Position numbers and translations under genes: made by a program
DNA from: Lentimicrobiaceae bacterium
Lineage (GTDB): Bacteria; Bacteroidota; Bacteroidia; Bacteroidales; UBA4417
DNA length: 64,000 nt
Assembly (NCBI GenBank): GCA_028697555.1
Contig: JAQVEX010000003.1
Span: 12,450-76,449 of the forward strand
Reading direction: 5' to 3'
Part shown: piece by piece, positions 7,421 through 59,372 of the stretch
Layout of the letters: the number at the start of each line of letters is the position of its first letter
Position numbering within the stretch: the stretch's first letter is position 1
Notes under the pieces: generated by a model
Seen by the model: only the letters and a program-made list of their open reading frames with translations
Told to the model about the DNA's origin: nothing
Databases searched by the model: none

Positions 7421-7565
7421 TGGGTGCGGGTTAGTTTTGAGTTTTGAGTTTTGAGTTCCGAGTTCTGAGTTCCGAGTTCCGAGTTCCGAGTCTCCAAACT
7501 CAATACTCTCGACTCAAAACTGACAACTCACCGACCACCGACCACCAACCACCAATCACCCAAAA
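7421..7565. repeat. mosaic heptamer-array intergenic element, copy A (type II, long imperfect hairpin)
   Basis: Fills the whole spacer between the convergent yitT-like and obg genes. Order: TGGGTGCGGGTTAG, then 8 tandem TTYYGAG heptamers (7435-7490), an A/C-rich complement (ACTCAATACTCTCGACTCAAAACTGAC), then 5 tandem CACCRAC heptamers (7529-7563). The outermost TGGGTG pairs with CACCCA. Confidence 0.9.
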
Positions 7566-8558
7566 TTATTCCTCCAACAGCTTCCACAAGTGGTTTTTAA
7601 GCTCGGTTAAGCCTTTTTTGTGATGTGATGAAATAAAAACTGTAGTAATATCCTTTGGTAATTCTTTTTTCAGCATCTCTATCAGTTCGTCGTCTAACAA
7701 ATCTGATTTGCTTACGGCAAGCATCCTTTTCTTATGTACAAGTTCAGGATTGTACATTTGCAATTCGTTTAAAAGAATTTTGTATTCCTTTTTTATACTT
7801 TTCGAATCGGCGGCTATGATGAATAATAATACCGAATTACGTTCAACGTGCCTTAAAAACCTGTGTCCCAAACCTTTGCCTTCGTGAGCTCCTTCAATAA
7901 TACCGGGAATATCTGCCATAATAAACGATTTATAATCGTAGTAAGAAACTATACCCAAATTTGGTCGCAGTGTAGTAAAAGGATAATCGCCTATTTCGGG
8001 TTTTGCTGCCGAAATGGTACTCAACAAAGTTGATTTACCGGCATTTGGGAAACCAACCAAACCCACGTCGGCTAATAGTTTTAGCTCGAAAATAACCCAT
8101 GCCTCGCTACCCGACTCTCCCGGCTGTGCGTATCGTGGAGCTTGATTTGTTGACGATTTAAAATTTATATTTCCAAGTCCGCCTTTGCCGCCTTTAACAA
8201 CTATGTGCTCTTCGTTGTCTTCAACAACTTCGCAAATAGCTTCGCCTGTTTCGGAATCTCTAATTACCGTTCCTAATGGAACTTTAATAACAACATCGTC
8301 GCCATCGGCTCCGGTTTTATTGTTTCCCGAGCCGCCAACTCCGTTTCCGGCATGCAAATGTTTGGTATATTTTAAATGTAGCAATGTCCACAGTTGAGCA
8401 TCTCCTCTGACAATAATATGACCTCCGCGACCGCCGTCGCCGCCGTCGGGACCTCCCTTAGGAATTCCTCTTGCTCTGTAAAAATGAGTCGAACCGCTAC
8501 CGCCATTACCGGAACGGACGTATATTTTTACGTAATCAACAAAGTTCGATAAAGCCAT
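7566..8558 (-). CDS. obg: GTPase Obg/CgtA
   Basis: Glycine-rich Obg fold ([11 protein letters not shown]...[12 protein letters not shown]), G1 motif [10 protein letters not shown]3 motif DIPG. Confidence 0.95.
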
Positions 8559-8574
8559 ACTATTCTATTTTCTC

Positions 8575-9744
8575 CTATCTGATTTTTAAAATTGCCTTGC
8601 CTACCTTAGCCGAAATACGATTAAAAATTTCCGCTTTTTCTCCCGTTGCATCAACAAGAACATGCTTACCTCTTTTTTTGTACAAATCCATAACAGGAGC
8701 CGTTTTGGTTTGGTACTCTTCGAGACGACCAATTATAAGTCCTGTAGATTTGTCGTAAGGACGTCCTTTTTCGGAACGACCTCTCTTGTCTAATCGCTTA
8801 ATGAGCTCGATTGTAGGTGCTGTCATTTCGATAACAAACGAAACATTCATGTTCATCTTTCGCAACAACCCGTCTAAAATGTAAGACTGCAATATTGTAC
8901 GCGGAAATCCTTTAAAAACAAATCCGTTGACATCGCTATGAAGTTTTATCTCACGTTCTATAATTCTTATAACTATCTCATCAGGAACAAGCTCACCTTG
9001 TTCTAATTTTGGTTTAATTACTTCACTCAATTTGGTGTTCATTTCAACCTCTTTGCGTAGCAATGAACCTGTAGAAATATAGTATAAGTTATATTTCTGA
9101 GCAATAAGCCTACCCTGCGTTCCTTTACCAACACCCGGAGGTCCCGAAAGCACCAAATTGAACCATACTTTTTGAAGTGCTTCATCAATAGCTTTTTGAA
9201 GCTTTTTAAAAATATCGGGTATATGCCCAACTCCATTTATTGCCTGATATAAATTTCTTTCCTTGTAATATTCTTTAACAGGAGCTGTTTTTTGATGATA
9301 CTCTTGAAGTCGGAACTGAATTACCTCTTCGTTATCGTCGCTCCTTCCGGACACTTTTCCTCTTTCAATAAGACGGCGGGTAAGCTCTTCGTCGGGAACT
9401 TCCAGACTTAACATACAAGTTAGAGTTGTGTTAAGTTTTAACAACAATCCGTCGAGTATGTACGCTTGTACTAAAGTTCTTGGAAAGCCATCGAAAAGAA
9501 ATCCGTTTTTGTCGGGATTGGTTATTATTCGTTTTTCAATAAGTTCAACCATAATATCGTCGGAAACGAGATTTCCTTTGGCTATCAGGTCATCAACCTG
9601 CTTTCCCAACTCAGTTCCTTCTTTAATTTCTTGACGTAACAAGTCGCCGGTTGAAATATATGCAAGGTTATACTTCTCAATAAGCAACTTTGACTGTGTT
9701 CCTTTTCCTGCTCCCGGAGGTCCGAATATAGCTATATTTAACAT
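8575..9744 (-). CDS. adk: tandem-fused double adenylate kinase (two complete short-LID Adk domains in one 389-aa ORF)
   Basis: Two P-loops (FGPPGAGKGTQ at the N-terminus; SGPPGVGKGTQ near residue 200). Each is followed by YISTG, GFPRT and a short LID region. There is no stop codon between the halves. Confidence 0.85.
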   Translation of the reverse strand: MLNIAIFGPPGAGKGTQSKLLIEKYNLAYISTGDLLRQEIKEGTELGKQVDDLIAKGNLVSDDIMVELIEKRIITNPDKNGFLFDGFPRTLVQAYILDGLLLKLNTTLTCMLSLEVPDEELTRRLIERGKVSGRSDDNEEVIQFRLQEYHQKTAPVKEYYKERNLYQAINGVGHIPDIFKKLQKAIDEALQKVWFNLVLSGPPGVGKGTQGRLIAQKYNLYYISTGSLLRKEVEMNTKLSEVIKPKLEQGELVPDEIVIRIIEREIKLHSDVNGFVFKGFPRTILQSYILDGLLRKMNMNVSFVIEMTAPTIELIKRLDKRGRSEKGRPYDKSTGLIIGRLEEYQTKTAPVMDLYKKRGKHVLVDATGEKAEIFNRISAKVGKAILKIR

Positions 9745-9769
9745 TTACCTTAAGGTTTATTAATATTTA

Positions 9770-10312
9770 TTACTTGTTTTCTTTTTTATAAATATGTGGG
9801 TAATTTCTGCCGTAGCCGTCTAAATCTAACCCATAGCCAACAATAAAATCGTTGGGTATCTCAAAGCCCACATAATCGACAGGGAAACGATTGTTAAATG
9901 AATCGGGCTTTAGTAAAAGTGTTGCTATTCTGACACTTTTAGGATTATGTTCATGCAATCTTGAAATAAAAAATTCAAGCGTTAAGCCTGTGTCAACAAT
10001 GTCTTCTACAATAATAACATCTTTGCCGTTTATATCAATATCTAGACCAAAAACTTCCCTAACTTTTCCCGAACTTTCTAATTTATCATATGAAGACAGT
10101 TTTACAAATGCCAATTGACAATGACCCGAAAATCTTTTTACCAAATCGGATGCAAACATAAAAGAACCGTTAAGTATTACTATAAAAATCGGATCCTTGT
10201 CTTTGTACTCGGAATTTATTGTATAGCTTATCTGATTAATTTTTTCAACTATATCAGTTTCTTCTATATACTTCTTAAAGTCAATCCCGTCAATACTTAT
10301 TTGATTAGGCAT
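9770..10312 (-). CDS. hpt: hypoxanthine phosphoribosyltransferase
   Basis: 180 aa. PRPP-binding motif VIIVEDIVDTGLT and C-terminal DFIVGYGLD typical of Hpt. Confidence 0.9.
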   Translation of the reverse strand: MPNQISIDGIDFKKYIEETDIVEKINQISYTINSEYKDKDPIFIVILNGSFMFASDLVKRFSGHCQLAFVKLSSYDKLESSGKVREVFGLDIDINGKDVIIVEDIVDTGLTLEFFISRLHEHNPKSVRIATLLLKPDSFNNRFPVDYVGFEIPNDFIVGYGLDLDGYGRNYPHIYKKENK

Positions 10313-10486
10313 AAAATTCTATCATTTAATTGCAAAAATGCAAAGTTAGAATTTTATTTAAATTTATTCCTGTCATTTCTAAATAAGTATGACAAATTTC
10401 ATGTTTTTTGCTGATTACTTACTTGTTTTCAAGCATTTTCATCTTTATCATTTACTTTTTTGTTGTGTTTAAAGGATAAAGCTTTT

Positions 10487-10642
10487 GCGTGTTGCGGGGT
10501 ACGAGTTGCGGGTTAGTTTTGTCCCGAAATTTCGGGACAAAACTGACAACTCACCGACCACCAACCACCAACGACCGATCACTCATCACTAATCACCAAA
10601 AGCTAACGGCTAACGGCTAACGGCTAACAGCCAAAAGCTAAT
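10487..10642. repeat. mosaic heptamer-array intergenic element, copy B (type II)
   Basis: Order: GCGTGTTGCGGGGTACGAGTTGCGGGTTAG, a perfect 30-nt palindrome AGTTTTGTCCCGAAATTTCGGGACAAAACT (10515-10544), a CACCGAC/CACCAAC/CATCACT array, then a GCTAACG x3-4 array. Lies in the divergent hpt/purE spacer. Confidence 0.9.
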
Positions 10643-10665
10643 AATTCAAAATAACTTTCAATAAC

Positions 10666-10696
10666 TTTGATAAAACACGCAAATATTATACTTTTG
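10666..10696 (+). promoter_or_regulatory. putative Bacteroidota-type sigma-A promoter for purE (TTTG-N19-TACTTTTG)
   Basis: TTTG at 10666-10669 and TACTTTTG at 10689-10696, matching the published Bacteroides -33 TTTG / -7 TAnnTTTG consensus with 19-nt spacing. The box lies 16 nt upstream of the ATG at 10712. Confidence 0.45.
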
Positions 10697-10711
10697 AAAA
10701 AAATTAAAAAG

Positions 10712-11215
10712 ATGAAAGCAATTGTAAGTATAATTATGGGTAGCACCAGCGACCTAAAAGTAATGGAACAAGCAGCAAAGCTATTTGATGAATTTGAAAT
10801 TCCTTTTGAAATAAATGCTTTATCGGCTCACCGCACACCACAAGAAGTTGAAAAGTTTGCAAGCACAGCAGAAGAAAGGGGTATAAAAGTAATAATAGCT
10901 GCTGCAGGAATGGCGGCTCACTTGCCCGGAGTTATTGCTGCATATACTACGCTGCCTGTTATTGGTGTGCCTATAAATGCCTCTCTCTACGGTATTGACG
11001 CTTTGTTGGCTATTGTCCAAATGCCTCCAGGAATACCTGTTGCAACCGTAGGTATTAACGCTGCTACAAATGCAGGACTATTAGCTATACAAATTTTAGC
11101 TTTGAGTGACGAAAAAATTAACGAAAAGCTAAAACTGTACAAAAGCAATTTGAAACAAAAAATTGTGAATGCTAATAATGAATTATCAAAGTTAGATTAT
11201 AAATATAAAGTGTAG
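10712..11215 (+). CDS. purE: 5-(carboxyamino)imidazole ribonucleotide mutase PurE
   Basis: MKAIVSIIMGSTSDL... and AAGMAAHLPGV motifs. I prefer the internal ATG at 10712 over the track start 10667, because PurE proteins begin right before the GSxSD motif and the putative promoter lies inside the 5' extension. Confidence 0.9.
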   Translation: MKAIVSIIMGSTSDLKVMEQAAKLFDEFEIPFEINALSAHRTPQEVEKFASTAEERGIKVIIAAAGMAAHLPGVIAAYTTLPVIGVPINASLYGIDALLAIVQMPPGIPVATVGINAATNAGLLAIQILALSDEKINEKLKLYKSNLKQKIVNANNELSKLDYKYKV

Positions 11216-11232
11216 CTAAGCCCTGATAACTT

Positions 11233-11886
11233 TCAATTCTTGGTAATTATCATAAAGCCGTCACCAATAGGTAGCATGATATTGTTAATATCGCTGCGAT
11301 TTTGCACGTAATTATTGAATTTGGTAACAGCCATTGTGTCTTTATCGGCTATGTTATCAACTGTTCGCAAATACCACAACACATTATCGACTATTATTAT
11401 TCCGTTGTCGCTTAATTTTGGCAATATCAAATCTACTATCGAGCAATAACTTTCTTTGTTAATATCGACGTAAACAATATCGAAACTGTAATTCAAGGTT
11501 TTGATAACATCTTCCGCATTACCTTTTATATATTCGATTTTATCGTCCAAACCTGCTTTCTTAAAGTATTTCAATGCTATTTGCGAAGTCTCGTCGTTGT
11601 AATCAACAGTGAAGAGTTTGCCGTTTTCTTGAAGACCTTGAGCCAAACACAGAGCCGAATATCCGGTAAACGTACCCAAATCTAAAACAAACTTAGGTCT
11701 GATTACTTTGCTCAAAAACTGCAATACTCTACCTTGATGTGGCAATGTAATCATTTGCGGATAAGCCGTTTTTAAGTTTGTTTCTCTGTACAGCTCTTGA
11801 AGCAAAGGCAAATCCTTGCCCGAGTACTTTTCGGCATACTCATCAACTTGCCAATACAACTTTTGCGGATTCGGAATTTTAACCAT
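11233..11886 (-). CDS. class I SAM-dependent O-methyltransferase (caffeoyl-CoA/catechol OMT-like)
   Basis: 217 aa. SAM-binding motif VLDLGTFTGYSAL and FDIVYVD, as in the Methyltransf_3 family. Confidence 0.75.
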   Translation of the reverse strand: MVKIPNPQKLYWQVDEYAEKYSGKDLPLLQELYRETNLKTAYPQMITLPHQGRVLQFLSKVIRPKFVLDLGTFTGYSALCLAQGLQENGKLFTVDYNDETSQIALKYFKKAGLDDKIEYIKGNAEDVIKTLNYSFDIVYVDINKESYCSIVDLILPKLSDNGIIIVDNVLWYLRTVDNIADKDTMAVTKFNNYVQNRSDINNIMLPIGDGFMIITKN

Positions 11887-11897
11887 AACTATTTCAA

Positions 11898-13118: not shown

Positions 13119-13120
13119 AA

Positions 13121-13708: not shown

Positions 13709-13820
13709 ATGTCTTTATTTATGATATTTCTGATTTAATATTTTGTAAAAATAATAATTGTGCAAAACTACTCTAAAAATGCTTGTCAATATTTTTCAAC
13801 TTTTCGATAAAACCTTGAAG

Positions 13821-13917
13821 TGGTGGCAGATGCAATGAGAAATGAGCAATGTACAGTTAACCCCGAAGTTTCGGGGCTAATTACTAATTGTTAATTATTG
13901 ATTCCCACGTACCCCAT
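13821..13917. repeat. mosaic heptamer-array intergenic element, copy C (type I, short)
   Basis: Order: TGGTGG, CAATGAG-like units, hairpin CCCCGAAGTTTCGGGG (13861-13876), CTAATTACTAATTGTTAATTATTG, then CCCACGTACCCC. Colinear with the cores of copies E and F. Lies in the divergent spacer upstream of porP. Confidence 0.85.
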
Positions 13918-35572: not shown

Positions 35573-35775
35573 TGGTACGGGTTACGGGTTGCGGGGTGCG
35601 GGGTGCGGGTTAGTCCCGAAGTTTCGGAAGAGTTACGAGTTATGAGTCGGGAGTTTTGAGTTAGGAGTTAGGAGTTACGAATATTTTTCCTGACTCAGAA
35701 CTCAAAACTCAGAACTAATTCACTAACCACTCATCACCCATCACCCATCACCCATCACCAACCACCGACCACCAC
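35573..35775. repeat. mosaic heptamer-array intergenic element, copy D (type II, long imperfect hairpin)
   Basis: Order: GGTTACG/GGTTGCG/GGGTGCG heptamers, GGGTTAG, hairpin TCCCGAAGTTTCGGA, GAGTTAYG-type units, a loop, complementary CTCAGAACTCAAAACTCAGAAC, then CATCACC x3 and ACCACCGACCACC. Begins right after the stop of the upstream gene. Confidence 0.9.
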
Positions 35776-35790: not shown

Positions 35791-35820
35791 AAAAAAGCTG
35801 CCTTTACAGACAGCTTTTTG
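35791..35820. terminator. bidirectional rho-independent terminator (groEL on the minus strand; Rieske-like gene on the plus strand)
   Basis: AAAAAGCTG-N10-CAGCTTTTT with A-run and T-run on both sides. 26 nt beyond the groEL stop. Confidence 0.7.
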
Positions 35821-35845
35821 TTTTATAAGAATATTTACTTATCTA

Positions 35846-44605: not shown

Positions 44606-45247
44606 ATGCAAAGATATACTGTTTATTTTCATCAACGTTGTATCAACTTTTACAGCAACAATAAAGCTTTACGCAAAAAAAACGTTGAAGACAATATTGT
44701 TTACTACAACGCCGAATCAAATTTATTTGATCATGTTTTAAATTTTTTATCTGACGACAAAGGTATAAATTTAACTATAATTGCAAAGAAAAGTGAAATA
44801 AAAAATGCTATAAAAAAGTTCAAATCTTTGTTTATCAAAATTGACGCAGCAGGAGGAATTGTAGTCAATAGCAAACAAGAAATACTGTGGATTTACCGAC
44901 TTGGGAAATGGGATTTACCCAAGGGAAAAATAGAAGAGGGTGAAAGCCGAAAAAATGCCGCTTTAAGAGAGGTTGAAGAAGAAACAGGACTTAGCAACCT
45001 AACTATTTTAAGAAAATTGGGAGTTACAAGGCATATTTTTTCAAAAAAAGAAAAATACCATTTAAAACATACGCATTGGTTTTTGATGTATTGTGCAGAT
45101 AATAGCGAGCCAATACCACAAACAGAAGAAGATATACAAATTGTAAAGTGGTTGGATAGGGATAAAAGTTTAGTATGTATAAACAACACATATGACTCTA
45201 TTAAAGATTTGCTGTTGGAAATTGATATTGATAATTTGTTTTTATGA
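44606..45247 (+). CDS. NUDIX hydrolase
   Basis: Nudix box GKIEEGESRKNAALREVEEETGL. Start placed at the ATG at 44606 (MQRYTVYF...) because the track's longer ORF (44474) overlaps pyrE on the opposite strand. Confidence 0.8.
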   Translation: MQRYTVYFHQRCINFYSNNKALRKKNVEDNIVYYNAESNLFDHVLNFLSDDKGINLTIIAKKSEIKNAIKKFKSLFIKIDAAGGIVVNSKQEILWIYRLGKWDLPKGKIEEGESRKNAALREVEEETGLSNLTILRKLGVTRHIFSKKEKYHLKHTHWFLMYCADNSEPIPQTEEDIQIVKWLDRDKSLVCINNTYDSIKDLLLEIDIDNLFL

Positions 45248-45258
45248 TTAATTAGCTA

Positions 45259-45600
45259 TTGGTGAATGGTGGTGGGTGAATGGTGGTGGGTGAATGGTGG
45301 TGAGTGATGGGTGGTGAGTGATGGGTGGTGAGTGATGGGTGGTGAGTGATGGGTGGTGAGTGATGGGTGGTGAGTGATGGGTGGTGAGTGGTGGCTTATA
45401 TCAATTATCAATTATCAATTATCAATTATCAATTATCAATGAACAATGAACCCCGAAACTTCGGGACTAATTACTAATTGTTAATTGCTAATTAAAAATT
45501 ACCACGTAACACGCAACACGTAACCCGCAACACGCAACACGCAACACGCAACCCGCAACCCGAACCCGCCAACAGCTAACAGCTAAAGGCTAAAAGCTGC
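45259..45600. repeat. mosaic heptamer-array intergenic element, copy E (type I, largest, ~340 bp)
   Basis: 3 x GGTGAATGGTGGTG plus 6 x AGTGATGGGTGGTG (nine contiguous 14-mers, 45261-45386). 5 x ATCAATT plus ATCAATG plus AACAATG (45400-45448). Hairpin CCCGAAACTTCGGG (45452-45465). CTAATTA/CTAATTG/TTAATTG units. ACACGCA/ACCCGCA heptamers (45502-45570). AACAGCT/AAAGGCT units (45571-45598). Confidence 0.95.
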
Positions 45601-45692
45601 TATCACGGTTAATTTCTGTTAAAAACAAATTTTATTTTAAATAATAAGTCATATTAATTACTTTTGCAGAGCATATATTTATATGATAAGAG

Positions 45693-46589
45693 ATGAAACA
45701 AAACACAGGAGGACAAAAAATACGTTCATATTTAAAACAACGCCTAAAAGACAGGTTTCGTTTTATCATCTTAAATGAAGACACTTTACAACAAAAGCTA
45801 TCGTTTAAGTTGTCGCGTTCAAATGTGTTTATTATAATAAGCATTTTATCGATATTGCTTGTATTGCTTACGGCGTACATTATAGCTTTTACTCCTTTAA
45901 AAATGTACATACCCGGATACACCAATCCTACACTTCAACATCGTGTTTATGAAGCCGAAATTAAAGCCGACTCTATTGAAAAGAAACTATACTCGTATGA
46001 GTTGTACTTACAAAACATAAAAAACGTTTTGAGCGACAATATTCCGGTAGAAGTTCCCGAACCTGCCACCGACAGCAGCGAAAATAAGGGTGTTACGGTG
46101 GTTGCCGACAATACTTCGGCAAAGGATTCATTGCTACGAAAAGAATACGAAGCCTACATCAACTTGAACTACTTTAGCTCGGAAGAGCAGAAAGAACAAA
46201 ACCTTATTACGGAAGCAAAAATCTACAACTTTTATCCACCGATAAACGGTATAATTTCGTCGAAATTTAACCCCGCAATAGGTCATTACGGAATTGATTT
46301 GGTTGCCGAAACAGATGAAGCAGTGAGAAGCGTGCAAGACGGCACTGTCATGTTTTCCGATTGGACTATAGAAACAGGCTACGTTATAATAATTCAACAT
46401 AGCGGAAGTATTACATCAGTATATAAACACAATTCCGTTTTGCTTAAAAAAACAGGTGAAAAGGTTATTGCCGGAGAAGCAATCGCCATTATTGGAAATA
46501 GCGGAGATTTTTCCAGCGGTCCGCATTTACATTTTGAATTGTGGATAGACAGAATTCCGGTAAATCCCCAAGATTATATTTTATTTTAA
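45693..46589 (+). CDS. M23 family metallopeptidase (membrane-anchored)
   Basis: 298 aa. One TM helix, and a LytM/M23 domain with HYGIDL and GNSGDFSSGPHLHFEL motifs. Confidence 0.88.
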   Translation: MKQNTGGQKIRSYLKQRLKDRFRFIILNEDTLQQKLSFKLSRSNVFIIISILSILLVLLTAYIIAFTPLKMYIPGYTNPTLQHRVYEAEIKADSIEKKLYSYELYLQNIKNVLSDNIPVEVPEPATDSSENKGVTVVADNTSAKDSLLRKEYEAYINLNYFSSEEQKEQNLITEAKIYNFYPPINGIISSKFNPAIGHYGIDLVAETDEAVRSVQDGTVMFSDWTIETGYVIIIQHSGSITSVYKHNSVLLKKTGEKVIAGEAIAIIGNSGDFSSGPHLHFELWIDRIPVNPQDYILF

Positions 46590-46606
46590 TCAATACAAAC
46601 AACGAA

Positions 46607-47773
46607 GTGGCAAAAAAACACATAGCAATTTTAGGGTCAACAGGTTCGATAGGCACACAAGCTCTTGAGGTTATTGAGTTTCACAAAGATTTATTTGAAG
46701 TTGAAGTGCTTACTGCCAATACCAATGCCGAATTGCTAATAAAACAAGCTATCAAATTCAAGCCCAATGTTGTTGTAATTGCCGATAAAAGCAAGTACAA
46801 AGAAGTTTCGGATGCTTTGTTTGACCACGGCATAAAAGTATATTGCGGAAATGAAGCAATATGTCAAGTTGTTGAAATGGAAACGATTGATATTGTTTTG
46901 GTAGCATTGGTTGGTTGGTCAGGTGTTGAACCTACTTTAAAGTCAGTTGAAAATAATAAAACCATTGCCTTAGCTAATAAAGAATCGTTGGTAGTTGCCG
47001 GTAGCCTGATTTACAAAGCCATTGCTAACTCCAAAAGCAATATTATTCCTGTTGACTCCGAACACTCAGCGATATTCCAATGTCTATCCGGAGAATACAA
47101 TAATCCAATAGAAAAAATTATACTTACAGCTTCGGGAGGACCGTTCAGAGGTAAAGACCTTAATTATTTGGGAAATGTGAGTGTGCAAGAGGCTTTGGCT
47201 CACCCCAATTGGGTTATGGGCAAAAAGGTTACTATCGACTCTGCAACGCTTATGAATAAAGGCTTAGAAGTGATTGAAGCCAAGTGGCTTTTTGGTGTTG
47301 AGATAAGCAAAATAGAAGTTGTCGTTCACCCCGAAAGTATAATTCACTCTATGGTGCAATTTGAAGACGGCTCTATAAAAGCACAGTTGGGGGCTCCAGA
47401 TATGCGTTTGCCTATTCAATACGCATTTTCGTACCCCGACAGAATAAAAGCTTTTTACAAAACCTACGATTTTGCAAATCACACAACATTTCATTTTGAA
47501 AAGCCTGATTTAAACACATTCCCTTGCTTATCTTTAGCATATTCTGCAATAGAAAAAGGAGGAAATACAACATGTGCACTCAACGCCGCCGACGAAGTCG
47601 CTGTTGAAGCATTTTTAAATTCGCAAATAAAATTTACCGATATACCCAAAGTAATAGAAAAAACCATGCAAAAGTGCTATTTCATTGAAAGTCCTGATTT
47701 GGACGACTTAAAAACAACTCATGCCGAAGCCACAGAAATAGCCAAAGCGATTATTAACAACAAAAACAGATAA
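46607..47773 (+). CDS. dxr: 1-deoxy-D-xylulose-5-phosphate reductoisomerase
   Basis: Canonical Dxr (AILGSTGSIG, DSEHSAIFQC, HPNWVMG). A GTG start at 46607 (VAKKHIAILGSTGSIG) gives a normal N-terminus. The track's ATG at 46541 overlaps the M23 gene by 49 nt. Confidence 0.92.
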   Translation: MAKKHIAILGSTGSIGTQALEVIEFHKDLFEVEVLTANTNAELLIKQAIKFKPNVVVIADKSKYKEVSDALFDHGIKVYCGNEAICQVVEMETIDIVLVALVGWSGVEPTLKSVENNKTIALANKESLVVAGSLIYKAIANSKSNIIPVDSEHSAIFQCLSGEYNNPIEKIILTASGGPFRGKDLNYLGNVSVQEALAHPNWVMGKKVTIDSATLMNKGLEVIEAKWLFGVEISKIEVVVHPESIIHSMVQFEDGSIKAQLGAPDMRLPIQYAFSYPDRIKAFYKTYDFANHTTFHFEKPDLNTFPCLSLAYSAIEKGGNTTCALNAADEVAVEAFLNSQIKFTDIPKVIEKTMQKCYFIESPDLDDLKTTHAEATEIAKAIINNKNR

Positions 47774-47779
47774 CTATAT

Positions 47780-49105
47780 ATGGTAGTTTTAATAAAAATA
47801 GCTCAATTATTACTCAGTTTATCAATTTTAGTACTAGTTCACGAATTTGGTCACTTTATAGCTGCAAAAATTTTTAAAGTTAGAGTTGAAAAGTTTTACA
47901 TCTTTTTTAACCCTTGGTTTACACCTTTCAAGAGACTAGTTGGGGAAACCGAATACGGTATTGGCTGGTTGCCTTTGGGCGGATATGTAAAACTGTCGGG
48001 AATGATTGACGAATCGTTAGACACAGACCAAATGAAGAGCGAACCCAAAAGCTATGAGTTTAGAACAAAACCTGCTTGGCAACGGTTTATAATTATGGTT
48101 GCAGGAGTTATTATGAACATAATCTTAGCAATAGTAATTTACATTGTAGCTATGTGGGTTTGGGGCGAACAATACCTTCATAACAGCGAAGTTAAATACG
48201 GCATTTCCGTCGATTCAATAGGATACGAAATGGGCTTACGCAACGGCGATAAAATTATTTCTGTTGACAATATCATTTACGAAGATTTTTACGAAATACC
48301 TGCCGCAATAATTCTCGAAAATGCCGAAACTATACAGGTAGAACGCGATGGTAAAAATGAAAATATAGTTATCCCCGACGGATATATTTCGAAAATAATA
48401 AAATCAAAATCGGGGAGTTTTATAACTCCGAGAATACCTTTTATAATTGGCGGTTTTACCGAAGTTTCGGCTGCAAGAGATGCCGGAATGCAGGTTGGCG
48501 ATAAAATCATATCAATTGACGGCAAGCCTGTTTATTTTGATGAATTTAGAGAAGAAGTTAAAAATTACAAGTCGGCTACAACGCCTATAACCCTTGTAAG
48601 AGACAGCGACACGCTAACCCTTATGGTTAATATTAGCGATGAAGGTATGATTGGTGCTGCTGTACAATCGCCGTTGTCTATTTTTAATATTACAAATAAA
48701 GATTACAGCTTGATAGAAGCAATACCGGCAGGAACTAAAAAGACCTTCACTGTTGTTAATGATTACTTCAAACAGCTTAAACTGATTTTCTCGCCCGAAG
48801 TTAAGGCTTACGAATCGGTTGGTGGCTTTATTACCATTGGAAAAATCTTTCCCGACACTTGGAATTGGCGTGCATTTTGGAGTCTTACAGCATTTTTATC
48901 GGTTGTTCTTGCAATTTTAAATATACTACCAATCCCCGGATTAGACGGAGGGCACGCCTTGTTTGCTTTGTTTGAAATCGTTACCGGAAGAAGACCCGGC
49001 GACAGATTTTTAATTAACGCTCAAGTTGTGGGTATGATAATTCTGTTTGCATTAATCATTTTTGCCAACGGCAACGATATAGTGCAACTTTTGTCGGGAA
49101 AATAA
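47780..49105 (+). CDS. rseP: RIP (site-2) metalloprotease RseP
   Basis: 441 aa. HEFGH zinc motif in TM1, PDZ regions, and NILPIPGLDGGH near the C-terminus. Conserved dxr-rseP pairing. Confidence 0.93.
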   Translation: MVVLIKIAQLLLSLSILVLVHEFGHFIAAKIFKVRVEKFYIFFNPWFTPFKRLVGETEYGIGWLPLGGYVKLSGMIDESLDTDQMKSEPKSYEFRTKPAWQRFIIMVAGVIMNIILAIVIYIVAMWVWGEQYLHNSEVKYGISVDSIGYEMGLRNGDKIISVDNIIYEDFYEIPAAIILENAETIQVERDGKNENIVIPDGYISKIIKSKSGSFITPRIPFIIGGFTEVSAARDAGMQVGDKIISIDGKPVYFDEFREEVKNYKSATTPITLVRDSDTLTLMVNISDEGMIGAAVQSPLSIFNITNKDYSLIEAIPAGTKKTFTVVNDYFKQLKLIFSPEVKAYESVGGFITIGKIFPDTWNWRAFWSLTAFLSVVLAILNILPIPGLDGGHALFALFEIVTGRRPGDRFLINAQVVGMIILFALIIFANGNDIVQLLSGK

Positions 49106-49136
49106 TAATTTGAAATCTCTGAAATAATAATCATAT

Positions 49137-49604
49137 ATGGAAAACAAACTTGATGTCCCAAAAAAAGAAAAAAATAAAAGCAAGTTAGGAAGAAAAGTAA
49201 AGCGTTTTTTTGTTTTCGTACTTATTTTTCTTGTCCTGATAGGCGCCGGCTATACATATTGGAAATATTTTTTCGTTTACAGCAAAGGAAATCGCACAGG
49301 AATATTGCAAAAGTTTTCAAACAAAGGAACTTTATTTAAAACCTACGAAGGCGAAATGAACCTGATTAGTATTAGGGAATTGAACAGCCTGAACCCTAAC
49401 TACGAAAAGTTTATGTTTTCGGTTGTAAACGACAGCGTAGCAAGTGAAGTTAACAAGCTACAAGGCGAACACGTTGTTGTAAGATACAAAGAATACAAAG
49501 GCGTATTACCCTGGAGAGGTAATTCCAAATTCATAGTTGATAGCATTGGTATTGCACAACCTTATAGCAGTGCCCCGAACAGTAAAAATATTATGAAGTA
49601 TTGA
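49137..49604 (+). CDS. hypothetical membrane-anchored protein
   Basis: 155 aa. Basic N-terminus, one TM helix, and a small soluble domain. No family recognised. Confidence 0.5.
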   Translation: MENKLDVPKKEKNKSKLGRKVKRFFVFVLIFLVLIGAGYTYWKYFFVYSKGNRTGILQKFSNKGTLFKTYEGEMNLISIRELNSLNPNYEKFMFSVVNDSVASEVNKLQGEHVVVRYKEYKGVLPWRGNSKFIVDSIGIAQPYSSAPNSKNIMKY

Positions 49605-49607
49605 TTG

Positions 49608-49780
49608 CTTGGCTGTTAGCTGTTAGCTCTTAGCCTTTAGCTGTTGGCAATGAGCAATGAGCAATGAGCAATGAGCAATGAACACCGAAACTTCGGGGTT
49701 AATTATTAATTGATAATTGTTAATTGAAAATTGCCACGCACCTCGAAACCCGCAACCCGCAACCCGTACCAACCACCACC
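49608..49780. repeat. mosaic heptamer-array intergenic element, copy F (type I)
   Basis: Order: GCTGTTA/GCTCTTA units, 5 x GCAATGA (49647-49681), hairpin CCGAAACTTCGG (49685-49696), TTAATTA/TTAATTG/ATAATTG units, CCACGCACC, CCGCAAC x2-3, then ACCAACCACCACC. Fills the whole spacer between the convergent hypothetical gene and udk. Confidence 0.95.
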
Positions 49781-50388
49781 TACTGTAGCTTCATCAAAAT
49801 GCCTGAAACAATCAAATCTATTGCGTTGTCGTTTTCGCCGCCTTGCGGGACGATAATATCTGCCAGACGCTTGCATGGCTCTATAAACTGCAAATGCATA
49901 GGTTTTACCCATTTATAGTAGTGTTCTAAGACTTGCTCTACAGAGCGTCCTCTTTCAACAGTGTCACGTCCGATAATTCTGGCGAGTCTATCGTCGCTTT
50001 CGGCATCAACAAAGACTTTTAGGTCTAACAAATCTACCAATTTTCTATTTGTAAAAACCATTATGCCTTCTATAATAATTATATCGCTGGGCAAAACTGT
50101 TATTGTTTCGGTTAAACGCGAAGAGGTAATATATGAATATGTAGGCATTTCAATTGCCTTTCCGTTGCGCAACTGTTTTACGTGCTCTATCAACAATGAC
50201 CATTCAAAAGAATCGGGGTGGTCGAAATTTACGTTCAGTTTTTCCTGAGCCGTCAGATGCGAACTATCTTTATAGTAAGAATCTAACGATATTGTTGAAA
50301 TAGAATCGGTTGGTAGTTGTTTTACAATTTTTCTAACCACCGTAGTTTTACCACTACCTGAGCCACCGGCAACACCAATAATAAACAT
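49780..50388 (-). CDS. udk: uridine kinase
   Basis: 202 aa. P-loop GVAGGSGSGKTT and the NFDHPDSFE motif. Confidence 0.92.
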   Translation of the reverse strand: MFIIGVAGGSGSGKTTVVRKIVKQLPTDSISTISLDSYYKDSSHLTAQEKLNVNFDHPDSFEWSLLIEHVKQLRNGKAIEMPTYSYITSSRLTETITVLPSDIIIIEGIMVFTNRKLVDLLDLKVFVDAESDDRLARIIGRDTVERGRSVEQVLEHYYKWVKPMHLQFIEPCKRLADIIVPQGGENDNAIDLIVSGILMKLQ

Positions 50389-54501: not shown

Positions 54502-54506
54502 AACAA

Positions 54507-54917
54507 TTATTTATTCTTATCTTCGCAAAATTCTGTGAGTACTCCGTGGGTAAATTTAGGATGCAAGAATCCTATGCTTAAGCCTTCGGCTCCTTTTCGT
54601 GGGACTTCGTCAATTAGTCTGACGCCTTTTTCTTTGGCTTCCGACAAGGCTCCTTCAATATTATCGACTGCAAAAGCAATGTGATGAACGCCTTCGCCCT
54701 TATTGGCTAAAAATTTACCTACAGGCCCTTCGGGGTCGGTGCTTTCTAAAAGCTCAATTTTCGTTTGTCCGACTTTAAAAAAAGCCGTCTTAACTTTTTG
54801 ATCGGCTACTTCTTCGATGGCGTAGCATTTTAAGCCTAAAACGCCTTCCCAATATGGTAAGCTTTCTTCTATACTTTTTACTGCAATACCAATATGTTCA
54901 ATATGTTTGATGTTCAT
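54507..54917 (-). CDS. methylmalonyl-CoA epimerase (VOC/glyoxalase fold)
   Basis: [18 protein letters not shown]...[11 protein letters not shown]... Start placed at the internal ATG (54917), because the 28-aa upstream extension is hydrophobic junk that overlaps the neighbouring gene. Confidence 0.85.
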
Positions 54918-54997
54918 AATAAAATTTGTTAATTTTGTTTGTGGCAAAGTTATATCTTTTTTGTTTAAATAATAGCAAATTTGAAAAAAGATTATTA

Positions 54998-55732
54998 TCA
55001 AAGCATACGTTTCTCACAATCAACCTGCTTGGGTACTATCTGAATTCTTTCGGTATTTTCAATCCTCCATGAATATGCTGTCATTATTTCGGTTAATATG
55101 GTTTGCATTTGCGATGCAGCATATTCTTTAAGTCCACTCTGATTGACCGCATTTTCTAATTGCTTTTTGCCTTCGTACTGTATTTTGTTTATATCTTCGG
55201 GCTTTATTGGATTAAATATATTGTTTTCGATATTGTAATATTTGTAATCGGTTTCTAATGAAATTATTTCGGGTTCGGGAAAGGATATAATCGTAATCTT
55301 TCTTTGTGGCTCGCTAGCTTTCCAGACAAATTTTTCAAAATCGTAGCCTATCAATACCTTAGCCTTAACTACAACCAAAGCTCTTTTTACATTTGGAATA
55401 ATTTTGAAATACATTTTGTTTTCCTCGTAATTGAATATTTCTTGTAGTTGTCCCTCGGTAGTAACAATTTTAAACACCTTTTTCATGCCCTCAACCACTG
55501 TATTAGTATCAATTTTTACCGTAGCTATTTCTGCAGATTTTTTACCTCTCTTGTAAGCGAAGTAAAACAAAATTCCAACTAAAGCAAGGTTAACTGCAAG
55601 AATTTCAATCAATCTCCATAAACTAATTTTTGTAATACTTGGTAATATTATGGTTGCAAGTATGTTTAGAGCTAACAAAATAAGAACCATTGTTAATAAT
55701 GTTACCCTTGATTTTTCATTTTTTGCTTTCAT
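54998..55732 (-). CDS. DUF4230-like membrane-anchored protein
   Basis: 244 aa. N-terminal TM helices, then a pattern (KIVTTEGQLQEIFNYEE...ALVVVKAKVLIGYDFEK) resembling DUF4230. Assignment from recall. Confidence 0.5.
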   Translation of the reverse strand: MKAKNEKSRVTLLTMVLILLALNILATIILPSITKISLWRLIEILAVNLALVGILFYFAYKRGKKSAEIATVKIDTNTVVEGMKKVFKIVTTEGQLQEIFNYEENKMYFKIIPNVKRALVVVKAKVLIGYDFEKFVWKASEPQRKITIISFPEPEIISLETDYKYYNIENNIFNPIKPEDINKIQYEGKKQLENAVNQSGLKEYAASQMQTILTEIMTAYSWRIENTERIQIVPKQVDCEKRML

Positions 55733-55744
55733 AGCCGTAAAAAA

Positions 55745-56551
55745 TTATATGAAATTATTGCAGCACCTAAGTGCAAAATGTTTAATTGCTTTAAAAGTTA
55801 CTTCGGGAGCCTCGATGTATCCCATATGTCCGACATCTTCCAACAAAAGTATTTCGCTATGCGAAGGAAGTATTGCCTGAGCAAACAGTCTGTCGTACGA
55901 CATTCTGGCGTCTTGTTTACCAATAATAAATAAAATAGGCATTTCGGCAAGCAATAATAAATCCAAGCTGTCTTTTCTATCGCGTATTCCCGCTATAGAA
56001 GCTATAACAGCCTCTTTACTCATTTTTAAGGCTTCTTGCTTTGCCGAATTAATTTGCTCGGTGTATTTATCTACATGCTTTTTATCGAACAAGTTGGGAA
56101 TGAAGTCTAAGATGAATCCTTCTCGGTTTGCCTCAACAATATTTATCATCCTCCTTCTGTTTTCTGTTTGTCTTTCGGTATCTGACGTTGCCGACGAATG
56201 AAATAACACCAATCCGATAACAGCTTCGGGCATTTGTTTTGCTACTTGCAAAGCTGCGTATCCGCCCATTGAATGTCCGCAAATAACAAATTGTTTAACA
56301 TTTTCTGCTTCGACAATTTGCTTTACAATATCAGCAATAAGTTCCATGCTACTTATAGTGTCAACCAATTGGCTTTCGCCATGACCCGGCAAATCGGGAG
56401 CTATCACCAAAAAATCGGATTTCAGTTTTGATATAAAATCGTTCCATATTTTTTTTGTCCCCATAAAACCGTGAAGCAATATAATGCAATTGCCAGTACC
56501 TTCAACGTTGTAGGATATTGTTTTTTCTTTATATGTTATTGTTTTGGTCAT
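55745..56551 (-). CDS. alpha/beta hydrolase
   Basis: 268 aa. HGF oxyanion motif (ILLHGFMG) and nucleophile elbow GHSMGG. Confidence 0.85.
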   Translation of the reverse strand: MTKTITYKEKTISYNVEGTGNCIILLHGFMGTKKIWNDFISKLKSDFLVIAPDLPGHGESQLVDTISSMELIADIVKQIVEAENVKQFVICGHSMGGYAALQVAKQMPEAVIGLVLFHSSATSDTERQTENRRRMINIVEANREGFILDFIPNLFDKKHVDKYTEQINSAKQEALKMSKEAVIASIAGIRDRKDSLDLLLLAEMPILFIIGKQDARMSYDRLFAQAILPSHSEILLLEDVGHMGYIEAPEVTFKAIKHFALRCCNNFI

Positions 56552-56702
56552 ATAAAAGACGTTATATTTCCATTCGAAATATTTGTCGGCAAATGTAATA
56601 TTTTGTTTCTAATTTTTAGATATAATTTAATTAATAATTAGCAAATAAATTTATAAAAATAACTTACCTTTGTTACCTCAAACAATTTAAACCTCAAACA
56701 TT

Positions 56703-58112
56703 GTGAAAATATTTAGAAACATTTTATTAATCGGTTTTACGGCTTTAATAATGTTCCAAACAGGGAATATTAAGTGCCAAACGGTAAACAGTTACGATTA
56801 TCAAAAAATAGACATAAAACCCATTGAGTTGCCAGTACCCGACAGACCCGAAGGTGTAACAGACGTGTTGGGTCTGGCTTGTGAACCTATTCCGCTTGTA
56901 AGGGTTGGAATAATAGGTTTAGGTATGCGTGGATATATGGCAGTTGATAGATTTAGATATATTGAAGGTGCCGAAATTGTTGCTTTATGTGATTTGTATC
57001 CCGAGAGAGTTGAACAATCGGAAGAACTTTGGCATAAAGTGAGAGACAATAAAGTTTACGGGTACAGCGGACAATATGGCTGGCGTGAAGTATGCGAACG
57101 AAACGACGTTGATTTGGTGTACATTTGTACTCCTTGGGATAGCCACGTTGAAATGGCTTTGTATGCGATGGAAAAGGGAAAGCACGTTGCTTTGGAAGTC
57201 CCTGCTGCAATGACTGTTGAAGGATGTTGGCAATTGGTAGATATGGCGGAAAAAACTCGCAAACATTGTATTATGTTAGAAAACTGCTGCTACGACTTTT
57301 TTGAGCTTGCTACACTGAACATGGCTCAAAACGGTGTGTTTGGCGAAATTATGCACGTAGAAGGTGCTTACATTCACGACCTTAGAGATTTGCAGTTTTT
57401 GCCCGAAAAAGATGGCGGTTATCAAGGCAAATGGCGTATTAATCATAATGCGGTACATACGGGAAATCCCTACCCTACTCATGGATTAGGTCCTGTTTGT
57501 CAGATTCTTGACATTCACCGTGGCGACAAAATGGAATACTTGGTTTCAATGTCAACAAAACAAAAAGGCATAACCGAATATACTACCGAAAAATACGGCG
57601 AGAATTCGGCGGAAGCCAAACGCCACTATGAGCTTGGAGATATGAATAACACCATCATTTACACAAATAAAGGCAAAACCATTCTTATACAGCATGATAT
57701 AACTAGTCCGCGCCCATATAACCGACTGCATACCATAAGCGGCACTAAGGGTTTTGCTCAAAAATATCCTATAAAGCAAATTGCTCTTGAGCCAAATGCT
57801 CATAAAAGACTTAACGACTCTACAATGAATGCTTTGCTTGAAAAGTGGGAACATCCTTTTGTAAGCGAAATCGGCAACAAAGCCAAAGAAGTTGGTGGAC
57901 ACGGCGGTATGGATTTTATTATGGACTATCGTTTGATTTATTGCTTAAACAAAGGTCTTCCTTTAGACCAAGACGTTTACGACGCTGCTGAGTGGTCGTG
58001 CATAGTCGAGCTGTCGGAAATATCGGCAAGAAATTATAGTGTTCCCGTTGCAATCCCTGATTTTACAAGGGGTGCATGGAACAAGCTGAAAGGATACAAA
58101 CAACATCATTAA
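56703..58112 (+). CDS. glycoside hydrolase family 109 (NAD-dependent alpha-N-acetylgalactosaminidase-like; Gfo/Idh/MocA fold)
   Basis: 469 aa, GTG start, signal peptide. Colinear with my recollection of Elizabethkingia GH109 NagA (VGIIGLGMRG, CTPWDSH, LENCCYD, GNPYPTHGLGP, GGHGGMDF, IPDFTRGAWN). Confidence 0.8.
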   Translation: MKIFRNILLIGFTALIMFQTGNIKCQTVNSYDYQKIDIKPIELPVPDRPEGVTDVLGLACEPIPLVRVGIIGLGMRGYMAVDRFRYIEGAEIVALCDLYPERVEQSEELWHKVRDNKVYGYSGQYGWREVCERNDVDLVYICTPWDSHVEMALYAMEKGKHVALEVPAAMTVEGCWQLVDMAEKTRKHCIMLENCCYDFFELATLNMAQNGVFGEIMHVEGAYIHDLRDLQFLPEKDGGYQGKWRINHNAVHTGNPYPTHGLGPVCQILDIHRGDKMEYLVSMSTKQKGITEYTTEKYGENSAEAKRHYELGDMNNTIIYTNKGKTILIQHDITSPRPYNRLHTISGTKGFAQKYPIKQIALEPNAHKRLNDSTMNALLEKWEHPFVSEIGNKAKEVGGHGGMDFIMDYRLIYCLNKGLPLDQDVYDAAEWSCIVELSEISARNYSVPVAIPDFTRGAWNKLKGYKQHH

Positions 58113-58140
58113 TCAACAATTAATTTTCTTTTTAATAGAT

Positions 58141-59232
58141 ATGTACGACAAACAAACACTGAAATCTATTGCAGAAAAATTCTACATTCAAGATAGTATT
58201 ACCAATATTAAAGACAATGCTGCAGGTTTTATTAACGATACGTTTTTTCTGAACGGCGAAAAACGAAATTACATCTTGCAACGCAAAAACTCTTACGTTT
58301 TTAGCGATATAAAAGGCATGATGAACAATATTCTCGGTGTTACCGAACATATAAAAAGCAAACTTGTTAGTCAGAATAAAGACCCCGAAAAAGGCACTAT
58401 TACCTTGTTCAAAACAAAAGACGAACTGCCCTACTACATTGACGACAATGGCGAGTATTGGTCTTTGTTTTTGTTTATAGATGATACAATAACACACAAC
58501 GAAGTCAGCAATTTAAAAATAGCTTACAACGCAGGTGTAGCAACCGGCGAGTGGCAATATATGCTCAGTGATTACACAAAACCTTTGGCGGAAGTTTTAC
58601 CCGGATTTCACGACATGGCTTTCCGCTTTGAGCAATGGAACGAATGCATCAGTAACAACTTTGCTAATCGCATTGAATCGGTTAAGGACTTGGTGTTTGA
58701 AATTGAAAGTCGCAGAAATGATATTTTAAATATTAGAAAGCATTTCGACGACAATAGTATTCCCAAACGCGTTTCGCACAACGATACGAAAATTAGCAAT
58801 TTTTTATTCGATAGTCAGGACAATGTTGTTGCTCTTATTGATTTGGATACTGTTATGCGATTGTCGGTTCTGTTCGATTACGGAGATGCTATTCGTTCGT
58901 ACGTTAACACTGCTGCCGAAGATGAGCCCAACACCGACGCCGTAAACGTAGATTTCGATATTTTTAAATCGTACACCGAAGGCTACCTTAAATACGGAAA
59001 ACTATTTTTAAACAACACCGAAATAGAAAACCTGTTAAATTCGGCTATTTACATAGTATATGAACAAACTTTACGCTTTTTGGTCGATTACATAGACGGC
59101 GATAAATACTACAAAATATCATATCCCGAGCATAATTTGGTCAGAACTAAAGCCCAACTCAAATTGCTTAAAACGTTGGAGTTGAATAGAAATAGGTTGC
59201 TTGACATTGTTTACAAAGCAATCAGTGATTAG
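58141..59232 (+). CDS. N-acetylhexosamine 1-kinase-like phosphotransferase (APH fold, NahK-like)
   Basis: 363 aa. RVSHNDTKISNFLFD, LIDLDTVM and FDYGDAIR catalytic motifs, and a C-terminal YPEHNLVRTKAQLKLL block that matches Bifidobacterium NahK as I recall it. Confidence 0.7.
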   Translation: MYDKQTLKSIAEKFYIQDSITNIKDNAAGFINDTFFLNGEKRNYILQRKNSYVFSDIKGMMNNILGVTEHIKSKLVSQNKDPEKGTITLFKTKDELPYYIDDNGEYWSLFLFIDDTITHNEVSNLKIAYNAGVATGEWQYMLSDYTKPLAEVLPGFHDMAFRFEQWNECISNNFANRIESVKDLVFEIESRRNDILNIRKHFDDNSIPKRVSHNDTKISNFLFDSQDNVVALIDLDTVMRLSVLFDYGDAIRSYVNTAAEDEPNTDAVNVDFDIFKSYTEGYLKYGKLFLNNTEIENLLNSAIYIVYEQTLRFLVDYIDGDKYYKISYPEHNLVRTKAQLKLLKTLELNRNRLLDIVYKAISD

Positions 59233-59372
59233 TGGTTGGTGGTCGGGGTTGGGGTTAGTTCTGAGTTATGAGTTATGAGTTACGAGTTACGAGTTCTGAG
59301 TGTCAAAACTCCAGACTCAAAACTCGAAACTCGAAACTCACACGCAACACACAACTAATAACGCTTTATAAC
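59233..59372. repeat. mosaic heptamer-array intergenic element, copy G (type II, long imperfect hairpin)
   Basis: Order: TGGTTGGTGGTCGGGGTTGGGGTTAG, GAGTTAT/GAGTTAC/GAGTTCT heptamers, complementary CTCAAAACTCGAAACTCGAAACTC, then CACGCAACACACAAC. Fills the spacer between the convergent NahK-like and M20 genes. Confidence 0.9.

Follow-up and report, generated by a model that had tools for sequence, protein, structure and literature searches.

We analysed a 64,000-nucleotide (nt) stretch of the Lentimicrobiaceae genome GCA_028697555.1 (contig JAQVEX010000003.1, positions 12,450 to 76,449 of the forward strand; hereafter the window), in which an initial annotation made from the sequence alone had pointed to seven intergenic spacers, A to G, that carry mosaic elements of short tandem units. 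We believe, with a probability of about 0.6, that these elements are lineage-specific, dispersed, non-coding quasi-palindromes with arms built from 7-nt units, and that in them the Lentimicrobiaceae have their own form of the STRR or long simple-sequence repeats (LSSR), the intergenic heptamer arrays of cyanobacteria and a few Bacteroidetes. The elements gain and lose units in 7-nt steps, their arms are partly complementary, they share modules, and they exchange cores.

Heptamer arrays in seven spacers

We called tandem arrays with Tandem Repeats Finder (TRF) and used autocorrelation over periods 2–15 as a second test. A dense array in the autocorrelation scan was one with at least 80% identity over 42 nt, and the control was 20 shuffles of the window. 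TRF placed arrays with periods of 7, 14 or 21 at 7433-7560, 10485-10641, 35574-35774, 45268-45598, 49612-49766 and 59234-59340, with 2.7–9 copies each and matches of 69–100%. Periods 7 and 14 were the only ones to pass the autocorrelation scan, every dense array that it found was inside one of six of the seven named spacers, and the 20 shuffles gave no dense array at all. Element C (13821-13917) falls under both thresholds, yet it has the family hairpin together with CAATGA and TAATT units. With both methods in agreement and nothing in the shuffles, the period-7 mosaic elements in seven spacers are real, although C is weak. There was no heptamer array in the coding sequence of the window.

The elements are one related, dispersed family, as had been proposed, and the two module orders that the initial annotation described as grammars do recur. 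Type I has a core that we could align over seven loci of two Lentimicrobiaceae genomes, with an invariant centre of CCGAA..TTCGGG..TAATT. Type II (A, B, D and G) has a GGGTTAG junction. The seven elements, and a terminator that adjoins one of them, are as follows.

Element A, 7421-7565, type II, takes up the entire spacer of a convergent gene pair, yitT-like and obg: GGGTTAG (7428-7434), a GAGTTYY array (7433-7491), a RAAACTC array (7497-7530) and a CACCRAC array (7524-7560).
Element B, 10487-10642, type II, with hpt and purE diverging from it: GTTGCGG units, GGGTTAG (10510-10516), the 16-nt palindrome TCCCGAAATTTCGGGA (10522-10537) at the symmetry axis, CACCRAC units and then a GCTAACG array (10602-10641).
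Element C, 13821-13917, in the spacer from which a gldN-like gene and porP/sprF diverge, consists of a type I core alone (about 13822-13911): GGTGGC, CAATGAR units, CCCGAAGTTTCGGG (13862-13875), TAATTR units and CCCACGTA.
Element D, 35573-35775, type II, between a convergent open reading frame (ORF) of 165 aa and groEL: a GGGTTRC array, GGGTTAG (35607-35613), a degenerate palindrome within the left arm, CCCGAAGTTTCGGA (35615-35628), and then GAGTTNN, NNAACTC and CATCACC arrays.
groEL terminator, 35792-35823, minus strand, outside the repeat family: a 12-bp stem, a tetraloop and a U7 tail, −16.2 kcal/mol.
Element E, 45259-45600, between co-directional nudix and M23-peptidase genes: outer arrays of a 14-nt GGTGGTGAGTGATG unit (nine copies, 45268-45394) and of ACGCAAC / CAGCTAA (45503-45598), around an inner type I core (about 45390-45508) of GGTGGC, six ATCAATT, two CAATGAA, CCCGAAACTTCGGG (45452-45465), TAATTNN units and ACCACGTA.
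Element F, 49608-49780, occupies the full spacer between a convergent 155-aa ORF and udk: a GCTGTTA array, a type I core (about 49646-49740) of five GCAATGA, CACCGAAACTTCGGGG (49683-49698), TAATTGN units and GCCACGCA, and then an AACCCGC array.
Element G, 59233-59372, type II, occupies the full spacer between convergent genes for an APH-family kinase and a dipeptidase: GGTTGG units, GGGTTAG (59252-59258), a GAGTTNN array (59257-59301), a NAAACTC array (59303-59340) and ACACGCA units.

The small ORFs next to D and F show no relation to one another, and neither had a family match. The GGGTTRC array of D, five units of GGGTTRC/GGGGTGC at 35574-35612, fits the usual G-quadruplex motif and has a telomere-type look.

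In the GAGTTNN units, positions 1–5 are conserved and the final two vary. Together with the strict 7-nt phase, this is what one might expect of phased binding arrays for a protein that reads heptamers in single- or double-stranded form, such as a cold-shock-domain protein, which would tune the hairpins or the nucleoid. There is evidence, reviewed in PMC4679880, for CspB on heptamer repeats with one protein per heptamer. However, we counted 38 unrelated unit classes in the window species, which argues against a single sequence-specific reader, and no candidate protein is linked to the elements. We think this explanation is improbable.

Palindromic build

We scored palindromy by local alignment of each element against its own reverse complement, with z values taken against shuffles. 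C scored 3.2 and each of the other six elements 7–11. The inverted arms are 18–45 nt long with a complementarity of 73–94%, and arms made of GAGTTNN and NNAACTC units form helices of about 4–7 bp that are split by internal loops of 1–2 nt. The initial annotation had seen no terminal inverted repeats of the usual kind, and this was half right: every element is an inverted repeat over its full length, and the ends of the type I core can be recognised as GGTGGC ... CCACGYA, although these are complementary over only about 5 nt.

As RNA or DNA, A, B, D, E and G have predicted fold z scores of −3.0 to −5.3 and C has −2.7 to −3.8, while F is marginal at −1.8. A, B, C and G folded well below their shuffled controls on either strand, and D and E did so on the plus strand.

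It had been claimed that every copy is G/T-rich in its left half and A/C-rich in its right half. This is true of six of the seven elements; C is flat (0.48/0.53). A palindrome looks alike on both strands, so the pattern is a chirality and not an orientation. We considered whether being G/T-rich on the strand that enters the spacer might be a general law of heptamer arrays and rejected it. The rule is true for the copies of the window species and of a Flavobacterium metagenome-assembled genome (MAG), but it fails in other Bacteroidales loci, such as L109 and L089, and we therefore regard the chirality as a trait of the family.

Five of the elements (B–F) contain a GC palindrome of 14–16 nt, CCCGAA-NN-TTCGGG, which is one CCCGAAR heptamer plus its complement. 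The sequence CCGAARYTTCGG occurs exactly six times in the window, where 0.5 occurrences are expected, and five of these are in elements B–F. The sixth (48459) is in a coding region, does not have the CCC/GGG extension, and is probably there by chance. In the Lentimicrobiaceae loci that we scanned, all 18 copies of the GC palindrome were inside heptamer elements, with 0.01 expected per shuffled window. Its position within the elements varies, and its loop is AGTT, AACT or AATT with the orientation of the flanks kept, which is the pattern expected of an element that is able to sit either way round. The GGGTTAG heptamer is not enriched overall (8 in the window against 4.5 expected). As a type II junction it does stand: the same junction is found on the plus strand in all four type II elements.

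Fixed places and changing content between strains

For the strain comparison we used orthologous loci with about 89–90% gene identity to the window (L051–L054 and L139–L143) and with about 96% (L146–L151). These close strains are cluster members and homologues; the relatives that came from the metagenome scan are at most 82% identical and too distant for this purpose. L139 and L143 can also be compared with each other, as their pheT genes are 99.7% identical. Nearly all of the sequences are MAGs or short-read contigs, and many of the contigs end inside elements.

Spacers A, B, D, E and F hold heptamer elements both in the window lineage and in the 89–90% lineage, and spacer G is occupied also in a strain that is about 96% identical. 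The interiors of the elements differ between lineages in every case that we compared. Polymorphism in unit number had been predicted from the window, and it is present in steps of 7 or 14 nt. In spacer E, L143 is one GAGTCAG unit longer than L139 (436 vs 429 nt); in spacer F, L149 is longer than the window by two GCTGTTA units (+14 nt); and spacer D has about 4 units of the CATCACC type in the window vs about 13 in L139.

There are also cases where a whole core is exchanged. The strains at about 96% have a type II core in spacer E, with GAAGTCG, GAGTYAG and AAGACTC units, where the window has a type I core, and the outer GGTGAGTGATGGGT and ACGCAAC/CAGCTAA arrays are common to both. Three independent assemblies agree on the type II core, and the window version of E is reproduced exactly by an independent Logan contig. 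In spacer F the window and L149 part exactly at GGCAATG, which is again a swap of a type I core for a type II core. Element B is roughly inverted in the sister lineage, where it ends in the reverse complement of the window GTTGCGGGTTAG junction. Element C is missing from the sister lineage and has about 170 nt of unrelated sequence in its place; comparison of the two showed no target-site duplication flanking C.

These comparisons bear on another explanation, which is that the elements are unrelated random microsatellites or artefacts of assembling a metagenome bin. The low complexity of the elements, the MAG origin of the window and the many contigs that end inside elements are what one would expect in that case. 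However, period 7 occurs alone, the modules, junctions and hairpin are common to different copies and genomes, independent assemblies agree, and the synteny of the flanking genes is intact in every strain. We consider this explanation extremely unlikely.

The GC palindrome varies between strains as well. It is present in D of the window and not in L139, and it is present in G of L146 and not in the window; in L139, the right arm of E has two extra copies and F has three. The presence or absence at D and G is accompanied by differences in the flanking arrays, and no clean difference consisting of an insertion only was recovered, so the palindrome may at most be called possibly mobile.

Other mobile DNA is found in the elements of sister strains, for which the elements seem to serve as landing sites. 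An insertion that resembles an insertion sequence, with an HTH_Tnp_1 ORF, replaces the left half of D (L141:9691-10569 and L143:17654-18532), and a foreign sequence splits E at its centre in L141:1-277. The heptamer elements in spacer A of L051–L054 and in spacer F of L139, L140, L143 and L149 enclose a module of about 75 nt that ends in the inverted repeats ACATTTTCGGCA / TGACCGAAAATGT; the window lacks this module.

The family beyond the window

The initial annotation had allowed that the elements might be confined to the window. They are not: the MAG GCA_033809755.1, also from the Lentimicrobiaceae, has four loci with the family units, hairpin, chirality and grammar. A scan for the type I core in one genome per species gave 49 loci, where by our own estimate about 17 would be found by chance, and a Flavobacterium MAG has heptamer arrays with the family hairpin. 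In a more distant relative (L057, in which an adenylate-kinase-like protein is 74% identical) there are six heptamer arrays in 21 kb, made of other units. The type I core had 0 matches in IMG/VR. Rfam gave no match at the gathering score over the whole window, which contains no rRNA, and a search of 45000-50000 by E-value gave only a sub-threshold chance match to a plant miRNA model.

We observed three further repeats during these scans. At L057:17100-17900, another GC-rich repeat (ttgacctcacccccggcccct...) is present as two direct copies of about 330 nt beside a long heptamer array. At L013:3540-4110 there is a tandem repeat of about 176 nt in which each copy is a CCAACAG heptamer array plus a short hairpin; this is a higher-order repeat made from the vocabulary of the family. 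An Omnitrophota MAG, CSMAG_1427, has five loci (L004, L005, L026, L027 and L048) with the palindrome gaatttaaccCCGAAGCTTCGGGGTTAATTcg followed by a second hairpin; these form a dispersed repeat family of their own, in a different phylum, whose GC core is related.

Gene context and a possible host function

The genes that flank the elements include gldN and porP/sprF (type IX secretion), groEL, obg, purE, hpt and udk. The gene orientations had been read correctly: A, D, F and G are between convergent genes, E is between co-directional genes, and B and C are between divergent ones. Together, A, D, F and G occupy all of the window's convergent spacers that exceed 20 nt. These four had also been said to fill essentially the entire spacer, which is right for A, F and G, while D covers 203 of the 273 bases of its spacer. 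The rest of that spacer holds the terminator of groEL itself, between D and the groEL stop codon, and this terminator is kept in all of the sister strains. At 8575-9744 on the minus strand, the window also encodes a 389-aa protein with two tandem adenylate-kinase domains, whose length is kept in the Lentimicrobiaceae and in other Bacteroidales.

We weighed the possibility that the elements are RNA elements selected by the host, that is, bidirectional terminators that are independent of a U-tract, stabilisers of 3' ends, or insulators of convergent genes, in which the G/U-rich 5' arm and the A/C-rich 3' arm would pair into a long hairpin. All four convergent spacers above 20 nt are occupied, the same spacers are retained across about 10% divergence, and on both strands the predicted folds greatly exceed those of shuffles in stability. 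We found no canonical terminator in A, F or G, using a simple scan that also missed the groEL terminator because of its loop length.

However, groEL has its own canonical terminator beside D, so D is not needed to end groEL transcription; of the roles suggested initially, only that of a slippage or recombination hotspot is supported by our analysis. B and C are between divergent genes, in promoter regions, and the way that interiors are swapped wholesale between close strains, with C dispensable, is unlike a tuned functional RNA. These points make a dedicated host function less likely, but with all of the long 3'-3' spacers occupied and A, F and G showing no terminators, the explanation stays alive. 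We judge it unlikely overall.

A scan for the sigma-70 consensus was uninformative, as the promoter model of the tool does not cover Bacteroidota. By eye, there is a putative purE promoter of the Bacteroidota type just downstream of B (10640-10712), with TTTG about 20 nt upstream of TACTTTTG, and it is conserved in the sister strains. With B upstream of this putative promoter, B itself would lie outside the purE transcript, and a role purely at the RNA level could then not hold for all copies.

Inverted heptamer arrays around PF05635 genes

In L057 we found two genes of the family PF05635 (four-helix-bundle proteins of the 23S rRNA intervening sequence (IVS) or Avd-like type), each between inverted heptamer arrays, with gene-less arrays of matching units nearby. 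We examined 15 PF05635 genes in total (L057:2031-2560 and 3900-4500, L157, L158, L168 and L178–L187), from metagenome contigs and plasmids of Bacteroidota, Cyanobacteriota, Spirochaetota, Bacillota and Chloroflexota. The plasmid sources were Bernardetia, Chondrinema, Treponema, Monoglobus, Chlorohelix, Nostoc, Anabaena, Dolichospermum, Planktothrix and Euhalothece. All 15 genes sit between inverted heptamer arrays. Seven was the best period in 29 of the 30 flanks, and the upstream and downstream flanks are reverse-complementary to each other with z = 2.3–58 (above 5 in 12 of the 15). In the 40 kb that we looked at from each of the Bernardetia and Treponema plasmids, the period-7 arrays are solely those beside the PF05635 gene. 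The genes are inside restriction-modification, CRISPR-cas, DISARM, RND-efflux and other operons. Among the papers available to our search, we found no description of this association between PF05635 and heptamer arrays.

One of the L057 proteins (P0253, from a Bacteroidales contig) is 66% identical to P0360 of Anabaena sp. UHCC 0204 (L157), where the gene is between cas2 and cas1 and is enclosed by nested inverted TTGACAA arrays. This identity, with TTGACAA-type flanks in both, suggests the transfer of a cassette between phyla. In the Nostoc punctiforme plasmid pNPUN01 (L181), a PF05635 gene with GAAGTCG/CGACTTC arrays immediately precedes a gene of the xisH family. Heptamer repeats and XisH/XisI have been noted to have similar taxonomic ranges (PMC4679880).

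These observations raise the possibility that the window elements are related to IVS-like cassettes. Such a cassette in its full form would carry a PF05635 gene, and the window elements would be non-autonomous relatives that have no gene. The arms would pair in a transcript or in single-stranded DNA and be processed or mobilised, with the GC hairpin in the place of the gene. Inverted heptamer arrays would then be the working arms of cassettes that cross phyla, and the window palindromes, possibly along with many intergenic heptamer repeats of cyanobacteria, Bacteroidota and other groups, would be their non-autonomous relatives. The period-7 inverted flanks of all 15 genes in five phyla are in favour of this, as are the two plasmid regions in which the only such arrays flank the gene, and the arrays of the same units with and without a gene in L057. 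The 66% identity between Bacteroidales and Anabaena fits the shared taxonomic range of heptamer arrays, and in the Coxiella 23S IVS there is a variable tandem heptamer just upstream of the S23p ORF (PMC4990558).

However, the resemblance is architectural only. Neither the window nor about 150 kb of DNA from sister strains contained a PF05635 gene, and the exact heptamer words common to the window species and the PF05635 flanks were 2 classes against 0.8 expected, which is not significant and not beyond chance. The inner AT-rich arms of type I are in the opposite left/right order to the PF05635 arms, and PF05635 proteins have no known activity of binding or mobilising such arrays. Our evidence suggests that heptamer palindromes with and without a PF05635 gene are one class, but we hold the cassette origin of the window elements, and the general role of such arrays as cassette arms, to be possible and rather doubtful.

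Comparison with known repeats

The cyanobacterial STRR are reportedly heptanucleotide arrays, described by Mazel in 1990, and the LSSR of Mrazek in 2007 are said to include 7-nt units. The initial annotation could name no described family with this architecture, but intergenic tandem heptanucleotide arrays are a described class (PMC4679880). That work mentions "larger assemblages of heptamer repeats" in Bacteroidetes spacers. For the spacers of Gramella, Aequorivita, Elizabethkingia, Flexibacter, Paludibacter, cyanobacteria and Beggiatoaceae it lists TAACTGA along with further directly repeated heptamers, and it describes insertions and deletions by multiples of 7 nt as well as contigs that break off within the repeats. 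In the intergenic DNA of prokaryotes no periodic repeat is reported to be more abundant than tandem heptamers, and that report sees no clue to what they do (PMC6344855). The G-rich heptamers of Xanthomonas and Nostoc that form G-quadruplexes are treated in PMC4692102, and regulatory effects of heptamers have been proposed in Nostoc (bioRxiv 10.1101/2022.06.06.494920).

Like STRR and the 7-nt LSSR, the window elements have tandem 7-nt units, are intergenic, combine several units in a spacer, are dispersed over many loci, vary between strains in 7-nt steps and break assemblies at the arrays. Unlike them, the window arrays are mirror-image arms of one palindrome with a fixed chirality, and the elements have two module orders, a GC mini-palindrome and cores that are exchanged between close strains. 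The window repeats resemble the cyanobacterial ones even though the host belongs to the Bacteroidota. A cyanobacterial host was considered and rejected: the window has type IX secretion genes of the Bacteroidota, and its proteins match those of Lentimicrobiaceae.

The small dispersed repeats (SDR) of Nostoc, from Elhai et al. in 2008, are said to be 21–27 nt long, to form hairpins, to be apparently mobile and to be nested in other repeats (cited in PMC3116915 and PMC2884548). The GC palindrome is like them in being very short, dispersed, nested, and present or absent between strains, but at 14–16 nt it is shorter than the length reported for SDR and has another sequence.

The elements do not fit repetitive extragenic palindromes (REP) or their BIME and REPIN assemblies, or classical miniature inverted-repeat transposable elements (MITEs), in agreement with the initial annotation. 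Like REP, BIME and REPIN, they are extragenic palindromes in mosaic clusters, often between convergent genes, that are able to form hairpins, but REP have units of 20–40 nt in hundreds of copies, with a conserved GTAG head, a partner RAYT (Y1) transposase and no tandem heptamers (PMC3116915, PMC2817692). The only small palindrome that recurs in the window elements is the one of 14–16 nt. A GTAG head was not visible in the GC-palindrome flanks that we listed, although we did no dedicated search for it. There was no transposase among the proteins that flank the elements in a scan with a family library, which was not a search aimed at RAYT.

MITEs, including the minisatellite MITE of Porphyromonas gingivalis (PMC4596501), are also short, non-coding and dispersed, have inverted repeats and an internal tandem repeat, and vary in presence between strains. 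Unlike them, the window has no target-site duplication at C, its strain differences at E and F are replacements, and no related transposase is known. The elements are also not CRISPR arrays, as had been said, since their units are 7 or 14 nt and contiguous, vs repeats of 23–50 nt with unique spacers. The 23S IVS and PF05635 cassettes (PMC4990558, PMC10053308) share with the elements a long stem formed by inverted flanks, with strain-variable heptamers in the stem; the window elements are unlike them in having no ORF, in using other unit sequences and in being outside rRNA, whereas the IVS lie in helix 25/45 of 23S rRNA and their stem is excised or processed by RNase III.

We found no prior description of heptamers ordered into palindromes in this way, of the two grammars, of the GC mini-palindrome, of cores swapped between close strains or of such elements in Lentimicrobiaceae.

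How the elements may arise and persist

Our preferred reading, in which the elements are a lineage-specific form of intergenic heptamer arrays, comes with a mechanism that we infer from the sequences. Slipped-strand mispairing would add and remove units, and hairpin-templated copying (template switching in quasi-palindromes) would restore the complementarity of the arms. Modules and cores may move from spacer to spacer when copies with arrays in common undergo ectopic recombination or gene conversion. The survival of the elements would be due chiefly to their own regeneration and to their being tolerated between genes, most of all where two genes end (3'-3' spacers). Any element that is transcribed would fold into a long, periodically interrupted hairpin that could block 3' exonucleases, provide a substrate of the RNase III type and insulate convergent genes, and we would regard these as side effects and not as the reason for its existence.

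Several points weigh against this reading. Slippage, template switching and gene conversion are deduced from end states only. The places of the elements are kept across about 10% gene divergence, and A, F and G fill 3'-3' spacers with no canonical terminator; both facts fit a selected function equally well. Slippage does not explain the uniform chirality, with its G/T-rich 5' arm, and the 7-nt length of the unit is left unexplained. Finally, assemblers often break inside the elements, so some of the interiors could be mis-joined, though E was confirmed twice.

Significance

The heptamers here are ordered palindromes with a grammar in defined spacers and not loose microsatellites, which makes them a tractable case. 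The elements turn over far faster than the genes around them, and strains that are 99.7% identical already differ. They also break short-read assemblies of this lineage. If the link with PF05635 is true, the 7-nt period would reflect how the arms of a cassette are made or read, and intergenic heptamers, 23S rRNA intervening sequences and orphan Avd-like genes in defence operons would be tied together. These three puzzles would then be open to tests of binding, processing and mobility.

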